Of a stretch of DNA of 64,000 nt, positions 31,951-42,657 are shown one piece after another. Below the pieces are notes generated by a model. That model was given only the letters and a program-made list of their open reading frames with translations, did no database searches and was not told the origin of the DNA. Source of the DNA: Escherichia phage N2; the sequence record ON645936.1. One strand, given 5' to 3'. Position numbers and translations under genes: made by a program. Within the stretch, counting starts at the first letter, position 1. Every line of letters starts with the position of its first letter.

Positions 31951-32253
31951 TTATTTACCTTTAATTACTTTAGCTGCTTCGATAGCCGCTTGCTGAAGGT
32001 CATCCATAGACATACCGAATTTAGAAGCAAAGTTATCAATTTTCTTTTCGACAGCATTCAAAGGCTTGGCCTGTTTACCTTCATTAGCACCAGGAAGAGC
32101 GAGAATACGCTCTTTGTCAATATAAAGGCTTACAAGTTTCTTACGGTCTTTATCGGACAAATCGTGAAATGAATGGGCCTTTTTATTTATAGCGGCTTCT
32201 AATTTACCTGCACTCACTCGCGCTTCAGTAATAAATTCTTGATATGTTTTCAT
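31951..32253 (-). CDS. ipII: internal protein II (packaged head protein with capsid-targeting sequence)
   Basis: 100 aa; N-terminus MKTYQEFITEA is the T4 IP capsid-targeting sequence with an IxE prohead-protease site. Confidence 0.8.
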   Translation of the reverse strand: MKTYQEFITEARVSAGKLEAAINKKAHSFHDLSDKDRKKLVSLYIDKERILALPGANEGKQAKPLNAVEKKIDNFASKFGMSMDDLQQAAIEAAKVIKGK

Positions 32254-32262
32254 ATGTTTCCT

Positions 32263-32679
32263 TTAAATGTAAATATTTTTACCGTAGTATTTATACCAGT
32301 ATGGTTTCATTAAAATTTTTTCGTTGAGTCGCTGTTGACTCAATTTAATAGCTGATTTGCATGGATTATAATCATTTTTCCATTCTGTTGGAATATCGCT
32401 TATGTCAGGAACTTCAGTGTCTTTTATACTGAACCCGCGTTTTAAGCATTCCATTATAATGTCTGATTGACGCTTTCGCAAAAATTCTAACTTGTCGTAA
32501 AAGAACGTAACATGACCAGAACCTAAAATAAACTCGGAAGATATTTTAAAATCTTTAACCCGCTTGCCATTTGCCACGTGTTTACGAACTATACCAAAAA
32601 CACGTGGCAATTCACGGTATTCTGCAATTAAATGTTGATCAGCAAGTTCAGATACTAAAGTCAAATTAATACGAGTCAT
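32263..32679 (-). CDS. denV: endonuclease V (pyrimidine-dimer glycosylase)
   Basis: 138 aa; [17 protein letters not shown]...WYKYYGK recognised as T4 DenV. Confidence 0.95.
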
Positions 32680-32704
32680 TTTATCCCTCCAAGTAACTGT
32701 GAAT

Positions 32705-32734
32705 ATACTATCACAGTTCTAGGAGAAAGTAAAC
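32705..32734 (-). promoter_or_regulatory. T4-type early promoter upstream of denV
   Basis: GTTTAC-N18-TAGTAT on minus strand. Confidence 0.5.
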
Positions 32735-32738
32735 AACT

Positions 32739-33269
<531 letters not shown>

Positions 33270-37280: not shown

Positions 37281-37332
37281 TAAGCCTTGCGGCAACCTTG
37301 TCGGGGTTCCACCTGCTAAGGCAAGTGTTTGT

Positions 37333-37423
37333 ACGAAACGCCGGGATTCGAACCCGGTTATTGAGCAGTTGACGCTACTCAATATTTTAAAAGGCCATAT
37401 CTCGACCATATCCGAACGTTCCG
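37333..37423 (-). ncRNA. tRNA-like structured small RNA (possible rnaC/rnaD-type stable RNA)
   Basis: canonical T-arm CCGGG-UUCGAAU-CCCGG with a 7-bp acceptor-like stem (CGGAACG/CGUUUCG) but ~91 nt and no clean anticodon arm. Confidence 0.3.
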
Positions 37424-37596
37424 TCAAAAACGCTACTCGGTTTACGGCAAAGATATTTCCTCGAATCGATAATTCGGTGCGCCGTTTCTGCTGTGATGTA
37501 AGGGGGCATTAACCGATCGTAAAGATTTGTTAACACAATTCCTTACCCAGGGAACATCAGTCCGACGACTTACCGGTAGCGACCCGGTTTCTCATT

Positions 37597-37673
37597 TGGT
37601 CGAGGCAGAAGGATTCTAACCTTCAACCAACGGATTAGAAATCCGTTGCTCTATACAATTGAGCTATGCCCCG
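37597..37673 (-). tRNA. tRNA-Arg (anticodon UCU), CCA encoded
   Basis: manual fold: acceptor CGGGGCA/UGCCUCG, anticodon stem ACGGA/UCCGU, loop UUUCUAA, T-arm GAAGG-UUAGAAU-CCUUC. Confidence 0.75.
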
Positions 37674-38383: not shown

Positions 38384-38455
38384 TGGCCCTGGGTGGAATT
38401 GAACCACCATCTGGCGATTATGAGTCGCTTGCTTGAACCTTCCAGCTACAGGGCC
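38384..38455 (-). tRNA. tRNA with CAU anticodon (Ile2/Met-type)
   Basis: manual fold: acceptor GGCCCUG/CAGGGCC, anticodon loop CUCAUAA, T-arm GGUGG-UUCAAUU-CCACC. Confidence 0.75.
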
Positions 38456-38952: not shown

Positions 38953-39038
38953 ATTATTAACAAAGGCTCTCAGGCAAGAACCCTTGATGATAGAGGGTAT
39001 TAATCAATGCGATATGAGTTAATAATAACAAATAATTC

Positions 39039-39554
39039 TTAAAGCAAATCAACCATTTTAACAGTCGGCAAAACAATTTCTTCTTCGATATAAGCAAATT
39101 CTACATGTTCAACTACACGCAAGAAATCATATTCATAGTATTCAGAAGCATGACCAAGAATATCAATGAGGCCTTCAGATATCTTATTACCATTCACAAA
39201 GAATAAGTCAAATACACGTTCTTCATCTTCTTCAGATTTATTACCAAGGTCAACTTCTATATCAAAGACCTTTTTAATGAATTCTGGATAAAGTTGGTCT
39301 GAGAACAGTCCTTCAACCAAATATTCATATATAAAAAGCTCTTGCTCGCTGAACAAACCATTACCACAATAACGGTCAGCTTTAGTGCTAGAATGACGAC
39401 TCTTAAATTTCTTTAAAAGATATTTAAATTGTTGGAGCTCATGCTCTTCTACGCCAAACAGTGTTTTGGTTTTATAGTTGTCACCATCATTTTCGCAGGT
39501 AGTGACATCAATTACGTAGCCCTTAGGAATTGTGCTGCCTAAACGAATATACAT
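39039..39554 (-). CDS. hypothetical acidic protein
   Basis: 171-aa ORF. Confidence 0.45.
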   Translation of the reverse strand: MYIRLGSTIPKGYVIDVTTCENDGDNYKTKTLFGVEEHELQQFKYLLKKFKSRHSSTKADRYCGNGLFSEQELFIYEYLVEGLFSDQLYPEFIKKVFDIEVDLGNKSEEDEERVFDLFFVNGNKISEGLIDILGHASEYYEYDFLRVVEHVEFAYIEEEIVLPTVKMVDLL

Positions 39555-39844
39555 TTGCTCACCATGTTAATGTAAGTATATTTAATACATTCAAGACCCA
39601 AAGGATTCTTGAAAATATCATATTCAAGAGGACCTTTTTCTGTTTCAATAAAAAAATCAAAATTTACTGTGTTAAATTTACGGTCTTCCTTAACTAATTT
39701 AACCTGAGAAGATGAACGGTCAATGTAAACCTTTTCAACTTCAAAACATGATAAAATGCCATAATCATCAATCAAGGCTTTAGCCGCGTCTTGATCATAT
39801 TTATATCCATTTTCAATGGACGATACTTTCGCATAAAGAATCAT
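39539..39844 (-). CDS. hypothetical protein
   Basis: 101-aa ORF. Confidence 0.45.
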   Translation of the reverse strand: MILYAKVSSIENGYKYDQDAAKALIDDYGILSCFEVEKVYIDRSSSQVKLVKEDRKFNTVNFDFFIETEKGPLEYDIFKNPLGLECIKYTYINMVSKCIFV

Positions 39845-39846
39845 TA

Positions 39847-40257
39847 TTAACCTCTATCAACGATAGCATGAGTATGAGCATTTACAATTTGCCACCAGTC
39901 GAAACGATTGGAACCATAATCTGGTTTATTTTCATTTTCTTTAATGATATCACGTAGTTTATCTTCTGTTTCAGCATACGCAATTAAATCATCATATCCA
40001 CCGCAAGGATAATAATTATCACCTGCGAATAAAAGAAAATTTACCTTAGATGGATTTACGTAATAACAGTCTTTAGGATATTTAGTTCCTCTCCAATCAG
40101 TTACTTCAACATAACGGTAAGAAAATCCATTTTTGCTTTCAATCCAACTCCACGCTTCAAAAGGAGTATTAAAAACTTTATCAGGTATTAAATTACCTTC
40201 AAAATGAGAAGGATTTGCATAATCCCCAGCATAAACATAATATTCGTTAATACTCAT
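39847..40257 (-). CDS. hypothetical protein
   Basis: 136-aa ORF. Confidence 0.45.
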   Translation of the reverse strand: MSINEYYVYAGDYANPSHFEGNLIPDKVFNTPFEAWSWIESKNGFSYRYVEVTDWRGTKYPKDCYYVNPSKVNFLLFAGDNYYPCGGYDDLIAYAETEDKLRDIIKENENKPDYGSNRFDWWQIVNAHTHAIVDRG

Positions 40258-40482
40258 TTATTCACCTTTAGAAATTTTATCCATAACAATAGCGATTAAA
40301 CCAATTAAAAATGCTACTACAAGTGAAAACACATTTTCTGCTGTAGTCAATAATCCGCATATAAATCCAACAAACATTGAAAAACTAAATGCAGAAGCAG
40401 AAATTGCAATAGCAACATTTCGAATTAATTCACAGCGTTTCATTTTTATTCTCCTCAGTAGTTGATAGGGTAATAATATCAC
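40258..40482 (-). CDS. hypothetical small membrane protein
   Basis: 74 aa with two hydrophobic segments; downstream of promoter 40473-40502. Confidence 0.45.
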   Translation of the reverse strand: MILLPYQLLRRIKMKRCELIRNVAIAISASAFSFSMFVGFICGLLTTAENVFSLVVAFLIGLIAIVMDKISKGE

Positions 40483-40502
40483 TACCCCATCTAAAAGTAA
40501 AC
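40473..40502 (-). promoter_or_regulatory. T4-type early promoter (GTTTAC-N18-TATTAT)
   Basis: minus-strand hexamers with 18-nt spacer. Confidence 0.5.
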
Positions 40503-40514
40503 TGTTTTTATAAA

Positions 40515-40823
40515 CTATTTTATTCCGCGTGATGCAATTGTATTCTGTCGTTTAGCACCAGTTTGTTTAAAGTCATGATTGTCGATTTGATCGGTACGAG
40601 CAACTCCGAATGATGATTTAATCTTAGCTTTAGATCCTTTAGTTATAGAAATAAACATCTCGGAAGCCCCTTTCTTAAAGTCCGAAGCAATTACTTCAAC
40701 ACCGTTCTTAGCAAGTGACTTCAGAATTGCCTCCGCGTACTCATCATCAAGACTCGCTTGAGTATTAATAACGAATGTCTTTGGCGCAGCCGCTTCATTG
40801 ATAAATTCTTTAAATGTTTTCAT
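40515..40823 (-). CDS. internal-protein-like packaged protein (IPI-type) with capsid-targeting sequence
   Basis: 102 aa; N-terminus MKTFKEFINEA (CTS with I-N-E cleavage motif); basic. Confidence 0.6.
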   Translation of the reverse strand: MKTFKEFINEAAAPKTFVINTQASLDDEYAEAILKSLAKNGVEVIASDFKKGASEMFISITKGSKAKIKSSFGVARTDQIDNHDFKQTGAKRQNTIASRGIK

Positions 40824-40853
40824 TTTATTTTCCTAATTAATTTTGATGAGATA

Positions 40854-40883
40854 ATAGTACCACAACCCTATTTAAAAGTAAAC
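40854..40883 (-). promoter_or_regulatory. T4-type early promoter
   Basis: GTTTAC-N18-TACTAT on minus strand. Confidence 0.5.
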
Positions 40884-41156
40884 TCATTTTAAATAAATTG
40901 CGTATTTTTTATAACCCGCTGACTCATGACGAAGACCCTTATCATTAGCAAAACGCTCAATGTTGTTAATTTGATTCTGGTCAAGTTCAGAGATGTCAAA
41001 CACGAAAAAGTTACGTTTGTTACCAACTGTTACATAGTCAGTTAAATCAATATCATATAGGTAATTGATGTCAGCAATCAAAGTCTTGACAGCTTTGCTA
41101 ATTTTTACTTTTTCGTTAAAAGTAGCTTCATTGATAAATTCTTTAAATGTTTTCAT
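40884..41156 (-). CDS. second internal-protein-like packaged protein with capsid-targeting sequence
   Basis: ORF 40884-41168; start taken at MKTFKEFINEA to match the CTS. Confidence 0.55.
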   Translation of the reverse strand: MKTFKEFINEATFNEKVKISKAVKTLIADINYLYDIDLTDYVTVGNKRNFFVFDISELDQNQINNIERFANDKGLRHESAGYKKYAIYLK

Positions 41157-41192
41157 TTTATTCTCCAATCACCCATTTATTTTGATAGGGTA

Positions 41193-41222
41193 ATAGTATC
41201 ACAACTAAAACCCCGTGTAAAT
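41193..41222 (-). promoter_or_regulatory. T4-type early promoter (ATTTAC variant)
   Basis: ATTTAC-N18-TACTAT on minus strand. Confidence 0.4.
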
Positions 41223-41234
41223 AACTTTGTGAAA

Positions 41235-41931
<697 letters not shown>

Positions 41932-41932
<1 letters not shown>

Positions 41933-42657
41933 TATAGTACCTTTAGTGTATTTTTAATTTTAGAAAAAAGTTCTTCAAGAGAACCATCGTTTGTAATTAC
42001 TAAATCGCCATCACGAATTGGCAATCCAGCTTCTGTAATATGAGTATCATTGGATTTTTGACCAGGACGAACTACATGAATTACTGTAGCACCCATCGCC
42101 CTAGCCGCATCCATTTCATGATCTTGACGAGTATCAGGAACGATATAATAATCATAACCTGAGTTAAATTTATCAAGATAATCTAAAGCAAATAATTTTA
42201 CCCAATACATGCGGTCGAAGTTATTAACAATCAAATCCGTACCTAGGGCTTGCATCAGACGACGGACTGACCATTGATCTTCAATATTATTTATAACGTC
42301 AGCAATCTTGTTAAATGCTACGAAAGTAACTGATTCTTTTCCTTCGTCATCAAAAACAAGCACACCTTTAATTGGGCTTTTACTATTAAGATAGCAAAAT
42401 GCTTGTTCCATAATCGTAATTACTTCTAATTTAGTCAGATTTAAATTAGTTTCACGATCATAGTCAATTCCTTCAAACTCTTTACGAGTTAAACAAGGAT
42501 AGTCGGTGTTTGCTGCAAATACACCCCATGCATATGCCAATGCATCCTTAATAGGACCAGCAAGTTGATATTTAACTGCAGAATAATTTTCCATGATAAA
42601 ATCTGCAGTAGTATCTTTTCCACTGCGCTTTACACCACTTAAAAAGATTAGTTTCAT
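41932..42657 (-). CDS. 1: deoxynucleoside monophosphate kinase gp1
   Basis: 241 aa; P-loop GVKRSGKDT; matches T4 gp1. Confidence 0.9.

Follow-up and report, generated by a model that had tools for sequence, protein, structure and literature searches.

The 64,000-nucleotide stretch of DNA analysed here (Escherichia phage N2, ON645936.1; called the window throughout, at its full length) is a segment of a Tequatrovirus (T4-like) genome in which two tandem genes encode the internal proteins (IPs) Ip9 and Ip7. They form two cassettes in a hyperplastic locus bounded by 57B and trna.4, the place of ipI in T4. Their products would very probably be packaged by way of a capsid-targeting sequence (CTS) and, by analogy, injected to counter host defence. 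In each cassette an early-promoter-like module and an RBS precede the 11 codons of the CTS, which are followed by an unrelated cargo of ~9–10 kDa. Ip7, Ip9, their CTS, the locus and the promoter/CTS-mediated shuffling of its genes are already in the literature and in GenBank annotation, to which the finding adds nothing new.

Identity and location of the two genes

The genes of the window run on the minus strand. Upstream of the two ORFs in that direction lie gene 1, 57A and 57B, and downstream lie trna.4, then trna.3/trna.2-like ORFs and the tRNA cluster. The genes that matter here, with the evidence for each, are the following.

41235..41690, minus strand: 57B homolog, Acb1 anti-CBASS phosphodiesterase (Pfam PF23474 Acb1, E 2.6e-60; collinear with T4 57B)
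40884..41156, minus strand: Ip9 gene, 90 aa from ATG (ORF listing, six-frame motif scan, tblastn, PHROG 7673)
40515..40823, minus strand: Ip7 gene, 102 aa (ORF listing, six-frame motif scan, tblastn, PHROG 2667)
40258..40443, minus strand: trna.4 homolog, a hydrophobic small protein of 61 aa (PHROG 1692, E 6e-35; collinear with T4 trna.4)
31951..32253, minus strand: IPII-like gene, 100 aa, CTS MKTYQEFITEA (six-frame motif scan; alignment to T4 IPII)

A first-pass annotation of this DNA had described two tandem ORFs that both begin MKTFKEFINEA and whose mature parts are unrelated. Both observations hold: the ORFs lie on the minus strand, encode 90 and 102 aa, and have mature parts that fall into different PHROG families and give no BLASTP alignment at E ≤ 100. 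In T4, ipI is a single gene between 57B and trna.4; because the two ORFs are flanked by the same neighbours, they occupy the ipI slot, with 57B as the conserved upstream anchor and trna.4 as the conserved downstream anchor of a variable IP locus. Both thus lie in one of the variable loci (57B–trna.4 or denV–e) that characterise T4-type internal proteins. The third CTS-bearing gene of the window, the IPII-like gene, belongs to the phage's second IP locus, and the IP set of this phage accordingly consists of Ip2-like, Ip7 and Ip9, without Ip1 or Ip3. A megablast search with positions 40200–41700 returned 640 phage records, the best being Escherichia phage 132 with 98.5% identity over the full length, and 38 phage records (at least 80% of that query covered) have the same Ip9–Ip7 arrangement.

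The suggestion that the two proteins might be new does not survive comparison with public records, in which both genes already bear names. Mature Ip7 is 100% identical to Ip7 of RB32 and 98.9% identical to 'internal head protein 7' of T2; as a tblastn query it found 283 phage records, and the protein matches PHROG 2667, described as 'internal head protein' (E 2e-41). Mature Ip9 found 193 phage records by tblastn, with the label ip9 in VR7, VR20 and IME08. The window's Ip9 is 92–94% identical to Ip9 of RB15 and RB33 (92% to RB15 Q38376 in a large protein collection), the corresponding gene is called Ip9 in the RB32 record, and the protein matches PHROG 7673, again described as 'internal head protein' (E 1e-54). 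Through RB32 and T2 for Ip7, RB15 and VR7 for Ip9, and the two PHROG families, both proteins belong to named IP families, and on sequence identity we assign 40884..41156 to Ip9 and 40515..40823 to Ip7 of T4-like phages. The mature regions are not those of T4 IPI: the Pfam profile IPI_T4 (PF11634) matches T4 IPI (E 7e-54) and neither window ORF, both of which fall outside that family.

The names themselves are old. The RB32 GenBank record (2006) annotates the order 57B-Ip5-Ip9-Ip7-tRNA.4 and describes Ip9 and Ip7 as 'similar to RB15 and K3' and 'flanked by 43 bp direct repeat'; Ip7 and Ip9 appear by name in the RB32, T2, RB15 and K3 records, and 'internal head protein' is used in many GenBank genomes. 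As cited in PMC2839356, the names go back to work on T-even polymorphism (Repoila et al. 1994, EMBO J 13:4181).

The capsid-targeting sequence

In T4, the 10 N-terminal residues of IPIII are enough for packaging; residues 4 and 7 of the CTS are important in targeting and 8 and 10 in processing, gp21 cleaving after Glu in L/I-x-E (PMC9026906). The earlier reading of the shared N-terminus as a T4-type CTS with an IxE site is borne out, in that F4, F7, I8 and E10, followed by Ala, are kept in both proteins, and both ORFs accordingly carry a CTS as defined by residues 4, 7, 8 and Glu10. The sequence MKTFKEFINE↓A (the arrow marks the cleavage site) is encoded at 41124–41156 in Ip9 and at 40791–40823 in Ip7, and combines the first seven residues of the IPI type with the I-x-E↓A site of the IPII/III type. 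Cleavage there would leave mature proteins of 92 aa and pI 9.7 (Ip7) and 80 aa and pI 8.2 (Ip9), both small and basic and resembling IPII and IPI*.

Loci were compared from 36 IMG/VR sequences anchored on 57B, together with T4, T2, RB32, VR7, G4498 and F25. In a set of 76 CTS ORFs drawn from 41 loci, M1 is invariant (76/76), an aromatic residue stands at position 4 in 74 and F7 in 72, position 8 is I, L or M in 66, and E10 is present in 69. Positions 5 and 9 are free to vary, and the 33-nt coding segment exists in 54 distinct versions. Because the residues for targeting and cleavage are kept while other positions and codons vary, this pattern of sequence conservation points to selection on the peptide, besides any on the DNA.

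The gene for the protease lies outside the window. By T4 gene order, gene 21 (gp21) is presumably located just beyond the window's end, and in the close relative G4498, which is 96% identical across the locus, a head maturation protease is encoded where gene 21 would be expected.

Repeat and promoter modules

The sequence elements in front of and within the two genes are listed below, in the order in which they are met on the minus strand within each type.

41125..41166, minus strand: 42-nt direct repeat, copy 1, RBS spacer plus CTS codons (repeat search, 98% identity)
40792..40833, minus strand: 42-nt direct repeat, copy 2 (repeat search, 98% identity)
41193..41221, minus strand: early-promoter-like site before Ip9, TTTACA, 17-nt spacer, TACTAT, TG before the -10 (promoter scan, repeat family, T4 ipI alignment)
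40854..40882, minus strand: early-promoter-like site before Ip7, TTTACT, 17-nt spacer, TACTAT (read from the sequence, repeat family, alignment)
40473..40501, minus strand: early-promoter-like site before trna.4, TTTACT, 17-nt spacer, TATTAT, TG before the -10 (promoter scan, repeat family)

The first-pass annotation had called the CTS codons and the upstream promoter region near-identical between the two genes. This is correct for the spacer between RBS and ATG and the 11 CTS codons, which together form the direct repeat and agree at 41 of 42 positions, and does not extend to the promoter modules, which are 65–80% alike. The 32 coding nucleotides of the repeat occur in exactly two copies in the 64-kb window, against 0.00 expected (100 shuffles, 3 mismatches allowed).

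Each gene nevertheless stands, as had been proposed, behind its own copy of a duplicated module with a T4-early-promoter-like motif, and a third copy precedes trna.4. The copies span 41182–41230 (Ip9), 40843–40891 (Ip7) and 40462–40510 (trna.4), are 65–80% identical to the reference copy and have in common the -35 TTTAC and a GTG(A/G)TACTATTA -10 block; each has a TTTAC(A/T) -35 and a TG-extended TA(C/T)TAT -10, separated by 17 nt. A generic sigma-70 scan detected two of the three, the site before Ip7 matching 8 of 12 consensus positions and falling just below the scan threshold. Since the scan found 12 promoters against 12.8 expected in shuffled sequence, and hence no enrichment, the promoters are called from their positional homology with the sequence in front of T4 ipI and not from statistics. 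The module before trna.4 is at the same time the right-hand junction of the cassette array, at which homology to T4 and G4498 resumes.

Two of the three window modules fold better than shuffled sequence. At the -10 region the trna.4 module has a stem-loop of -16.5 kcal/mol (z -2.25) and the Ip9 module a weak one (z -2.3); no stable stem-loop is predicted for the Ip7 module (z +1.15), and that of T4 ipI is strong (z -5.0). These strengths fit the published description of IP-associated elements as 'weaker, AT-rich' (PMC2839356). A late promoter (TATAAATA) was found in none of the intergenic regions, the nearest one upstream on the minus strand being at 42288–42295, which counts against a sufficient supply of the two proteins during prohead assembly; no MotA box was found directly upstream of Ip9 or Ip7, and a terminator scan of 39000–42000 returned no terminators.

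Cassette shuffling

Across the 41 loci, the interval between 57B and trna.4 holds 0–5 CTS ORFs and at least 18 unrelated cargo families. The commonest cargos are Ip9, in 17 loci, and Ip7, in 12. They occur together seven times, Ip7 alone five times and Ip9 alone ten times, with one case of reversed order. An obligate pairing of Ip7 and Ip9 was considered and rejected, as the two are apart in 15 loci and together in 7. In other T4-like phages the same cargos are found behind different CTS variants, in a different order, on their own or in the second IP locus.

The conserved 5' module had been proposed to act as a recombination handle for the exchange of cargos, and the breakpoints support this: in blastn comparisons with RB32, T2, T4, G4498 and the IMG/VR phage L034, all insertion, deletion and replacement junctions lie inside the modules, in the promoter -10 block or in the CTS, and a nucleotide alignment shows the same at the level of single bases. 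Relative to RB32, the window lacks the Ip5 cassette, and the homology blocks overlap at 41250..41136; L034 lacks the Ip9 cassette, with the junction within the repeat. Homology to T4 breaks off at 41135, after 22 nt of the CTS, and is picked up again at 40482, in the -10 of the trna.4 promoter. G4498 has an extra cassette inserted at 40485–40462. In T2, an Ip9-type promoter is joined to the RBS, CTS and cargo of Ip7 within the -10 block. Modular shuffling of IP genes through promoter and CTS elements has already been published (PMC3012670; Arbiol 2010, PMC2839356; and Repoila 1994 as cited in PMC2839356).

The origin of the repeat can be approached in the same way. The Ip9 ORFs of the window and of G4498 differ at 8 of 276 positions, and seven of these eight differences lie in nt 8–33, where the window's Ip9 matches its own Ip7 CTS exactly; the same Ip9 cargo in G4498, RB32 and the loci L027 and L020 carries MKTYQEFIxEA. 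By this comparison, the Ip9 CTS in the lineage of the window has been overwritten by a gene conversion of ~25 nt from Ip7, an event that gave rise to the 42-nt repeat.

The Ip9 cargo beyond T4-like phages

The Ip9 cargo family is small and extends outside the T4-like phages; at 50% identity it accounts for 26 clusters in a set of 1.84 billion representatives. CTS-less members of 72 aa (MNKATA...), one of them at L043:2504–2722, are encoded in Kagunavirus-like siphophages of 41–45 kb, in which the gene is the first after a divergent intergenic region of ~480 nt and heads a block of small accessory ORFs. A member of 74 aa, likewise CTS-less, is found among small ORFs in Seuratvirus KS_S4, and in Kuttervirus aagejoakim the Ip9 domain forms the C-terminal residues 678–737 of a 755-aa protein (PHROG 3867). 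More distant members carry CTS-like leaders, such as MKSFKEYLTES and MKTFQEFLNEA.

This distribution suggests that the CTS locus captures free-standing phage effector domains. Tentatively, the Ip9 cargo could be a pre-existing and widely travelled effector domain that recombination behind a CTS turned, in T4-like phages, into a pre-loaded, injected weapon, although we hold this less likely than not. If it were true, the target of Ip9 would be a host function or defence common to the hosts of phages with different DNA chemistry, and not a glc-hmC-specific GmrSD, and the IP loci would be a 'capture and pre-deliver' platform open to anti-defence proteins of the cytoplasm in general. The CTS-less relatives also offer a practical route to function, as they can be assayed as plain cytoplasmic proteins.

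Predicted function of Ip7 and Ip9

Pfam searches of both ORFs gave sub-threshold noise only, and a PDB sequence search with the Ip7 and Ip9 family profiles gave nothing below E 0.6. The AF2 model of Ip9 has a pLDDT of 87. That of Ip7 has 64 overall, with 72–85 in the core, which is predicted to be beta-alpha-beta-beta, and less than 50 for residues 76–102; this C-terminal tail is basic and predicted to be disordered, yet its sequence is invariant. Neither protein has a significant fold match: Foldseek comparison of the Ip7 model with the PDB yielded generic ACT/RRM-like beta-alpha-beta matches only (best E 0.058), and no IPI* structure is among the fold matches listed.

Searchable papers yielded neither virion proteomics nor N-terminal data on Ip7 or Ip9, and we infer their packaging and cleavage from the biology of T4. 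Through the CTS both proteins would attach to the scaffolding core of the prohead; gp21, the prohead protease, would cut after Glu10 (I-N-E↓A), and the mature, basic proteins would remain in the head, probably in hundreds of copies, to be ejected with the DNA. By analogy with Ip1–3, they would then disarm a first-response defence of the host ahead of all phage gene expression. T4 Ip1, Ip2 and Ip3 are inhibitors of GmrSD type IV restriction enzymes, a different one in each case (PMC12373910), whereas Ip4–10 are without a known partner, and plasmid-borne IPIII is functional even when it lacks its CTS (PMC9391042). An injected counter-defence role, argued from these analogues, is the best-supported inference for Ip7 and Ip9.

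Within such a role the target need not be of the GmrSD type. That Ip7 and Ip9 are injected against another early-acting system or a shared host function is a possibility that deserves attention, even if we hold it to be the less probable one. The Ip9 cargo has homologs in phages of the Kagunavirus, Seuratvirus and Kuttervirus groups, which are not known to carry glucosyl-hmC DNA. Furthermore, ip4–10 gave no reproducible inhibition of 15 GmrSD groups, an apparent signal of ip7 with CLS_011 not being repeated (PMC12373910, Supplementary Fig. 9). On the other hand, the diversity of GmrSD is very large and representatives only were assayed (PMC12373910), and the three characterised IPs all act on the GmrSD family.

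It appears improbable that Ip7 and Ip9, although packaged, chiefly serve the virion itself, through DNA charge neutralisation, core filling or faster head assembly, and not counter-defence. The small size and basic character of both mature proteins would suit such a role, and the T4 IPs, present at ~300 copies each, are thought to contact DNA. IPIII mutants, in addition, build heads more slowly and have a reduced burst size (PMC9026906; PMC3012670). Head filling, however, leaves the stand-alone Ip9 cargo of siphophages unexplained, and because that cargo occurs CTS-less outside the T4-like phages, a purely head-structural role for Ip9 is argued against; 0–5 unrelated cargos per locus in close relatives amount to the turnover typical of arms-race genes, and defence targets have now been assigned to all three T4 IPs (PMC12373910).

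Finally, we give hardly any credence to the reading of the shared 5' sequence as an element acting only at the DNA or RNA level, in translation initiation or recombination, with the proteins early, cytoplasmic and unpackaged: early-type promoters do precede both genes and a late promoter is absent directly upstream, but the amino acids for targeting and cleavage are kept across the many nucleotide versions of the segment, the same class of peptide is sufficient for packaging in T4 experiments (PMC9026906), and the Ip9-cargo homologs outside the T4-like phages simply do without the peptide, which makes the CTS a protein-level add-on.

From the IP set of a therapeutic T4-like phage, it could in time become possible to predict its host range on wild E. 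coli.

Comparison with known systems

The closest counterparts of the window genes are Ip7 and Ip9 of K3, RB15, RB32 and T2, with which they share the locus, the order (Ip9 then Ip7) and the cassette architecture. RB32 differs in having an extra Ip5 cassette upstream and an Ip9 CTS that reads MKTYQEFISEA. Its annotated 43-bp repeat was considered as a match for the repeat of the window and rejected: the former is a promoter–RBS block around the Ip9+Ip7 pair (L040:1096-1139 and 1807-1850), and the latter is the RBS+CTS block of the two genes.

T4 IPI (Ip1; a GmrSD inhibitor, PF11634) occupies the same slot between 57B and trna.4 and is likewise a small basic protein. Its homology to the window genes covers the first 22 nt of the ORF (MKTFKEF) as well as the promoter region in front of it; its propeptide, however, has 19 residues (MKTFKEFTSTT...ITE↓A) as against 10, and its mature part is unrelated to Ip7 and Ip9. 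T4 IPII and IPIII resemble the window proteins in the 10-residue CTS with its (I)-x-E↓A site (MKTYQEFIAE↓A versus MKTFKEFINE↓A) and in the promoter-embedded inverted repeat upstream. They differ in their position, at the other IP locus near denV and e, in their cargos, which are unrelated to Ip7 and Ip9, and in having known targets (the GmrSD of ECOR21 and ECOR17), none being known for Ip7 and Ip9.

At the level of the cassettes, the nearest parallel is provided by the PeSLs, the mobile promoter/stem-loop cassettes of RB49/phi1-type phages (Arbiol et al. 2010, PMC2839356; PMC4122927). In both systems small non-essential ORFs lie between short, conserved modules of regulatory sequence, at which insertions, deletions and replacements are joined. 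The IP-associated elements, with T4 early promoters and weaker AT-rich stems, have been described as analogs, not homologs, of the PeSLs (PMC2839356), and the IP cassettes possess in the coding CTS a second handle, which the PeSLs lack.

Ip7 and Ip9 cargo beyond the tandem locus

The cargo domain of Ip9, the mature part behind the N-terminal capsid-targeting sequence (CTS), belongs to PHROG 7673, a family that also occurs beyond the T4-like phages, at the following loci.

L043, carrier of a 72-aa Kagunavirus homolog: 2504-2722
L045: 1992-2216
L044: 467-2734
L047-L050: 4001-4219

Kagunavirus-like and Seuratvirus siphophages encode the cargo as a stand-alone gene of 72-74 aa devoid of a CTS, which in the Kagunavirus-like phages follows a divergent intergenic region and heads a block of small accessory ORFs. 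The domain is also present in one Kuttervirus phage, as the C-terminal end of a 755-aa PHROG 3867 protein. The 'ip7 protein' of Escherichia phage OLB35 (P0014, 77 aa) is a chimera, likewise lacking the CTS, in which Ip7 residues ~29-68 are joined to Ip9 residues ~58-90. Reversed gene order, with an Ip7-like gene preceding an Ip9-like one, is found in an IMG/VR phage (L007:4034-4670), and a fusion of the OLB35 type could have arisen by a deletion within such an arrangement.

Within Ip7, the C-terminal tail (residues 76-102, ~27 residues; window 40515-40592) is predicted to be disordered, with pLDDT <50, and is basic (pI 9.7 for the predicted mature protein). Since its sequence, HDFKQTG.KRQNTIASRGIK, is nonetheless almost unchanged across homologs down to 68% identity, the tail suggests a binding motif.

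Neighbourhood and expression signals

Directly upstream of the internal protein (IP) cassettes lies 57B (41235-41690), the anti-CBASS phosphodiesterase Acb1 (PF23474, E 2.6e-60), and with it the locus would form a small counter-defence neighbourhood. In many GenBank records 57B still carries the label 'RNA ligase' or 'hypothetical'.

GGAG, annotated in T4 as the motif of the endoribonuclease RegB, is found in the Shine-Dalgarno regions of both Ip9 (41160-41170) and trna.4 (40447-40456), whereas the Ip7 region (40827-40836) reads GGAA. Judging by these motifs, the tandem genes may differ in the stability of their early mRNAs.

Comparison with T4 and RB32

A tRNA-free gap of ~700 nt separates tRNA-Arg (37597-37673) from tRNA-Met/Ile2 (38384-38455); in T4, the homing endonuclease gene segB occupies the matching place. 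ARAGORN also reports a tRNA-Lys(ttt) of 94 nt at 37331-37424, an unusual length for a tRNA other than Ser, Leu or Tyr.

The second IP locus of the window consists, in the direction of transcription, of three genes.

32739..33233, minus strand: e
32263..32679, minus strand: denV
31951..32253, minus strand: IPII-like gene

The T4 order, in contrast, is e, ipIII, ipII, denV. A late-promoter motif, TATAAATA, is located directly 5' of the IPII-like gene, within the 3' end of denV. Given that the IPII-like gene is present and ipIII is absent from this locus (31951-33233), the injected set of this phage appears to comprise Ip2-like, Ip7 and Ip9 proteins, without Ip1 or Ip3.

In phage RB32, the Ip9 and Ip7 pair is flanked by both copies of an annotated '43 bp direct repeat', in fact a 100% identical 44-nt block (L040:1096-1139 and 1807-1850) that starts at the -10, takes in the RBS and ends with ATGAAA. 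This repeat pair differs from that of the window, which consists of the RBS spacer and CTS codons, indicating that different parts of the same module have been homogenised in different lineages.
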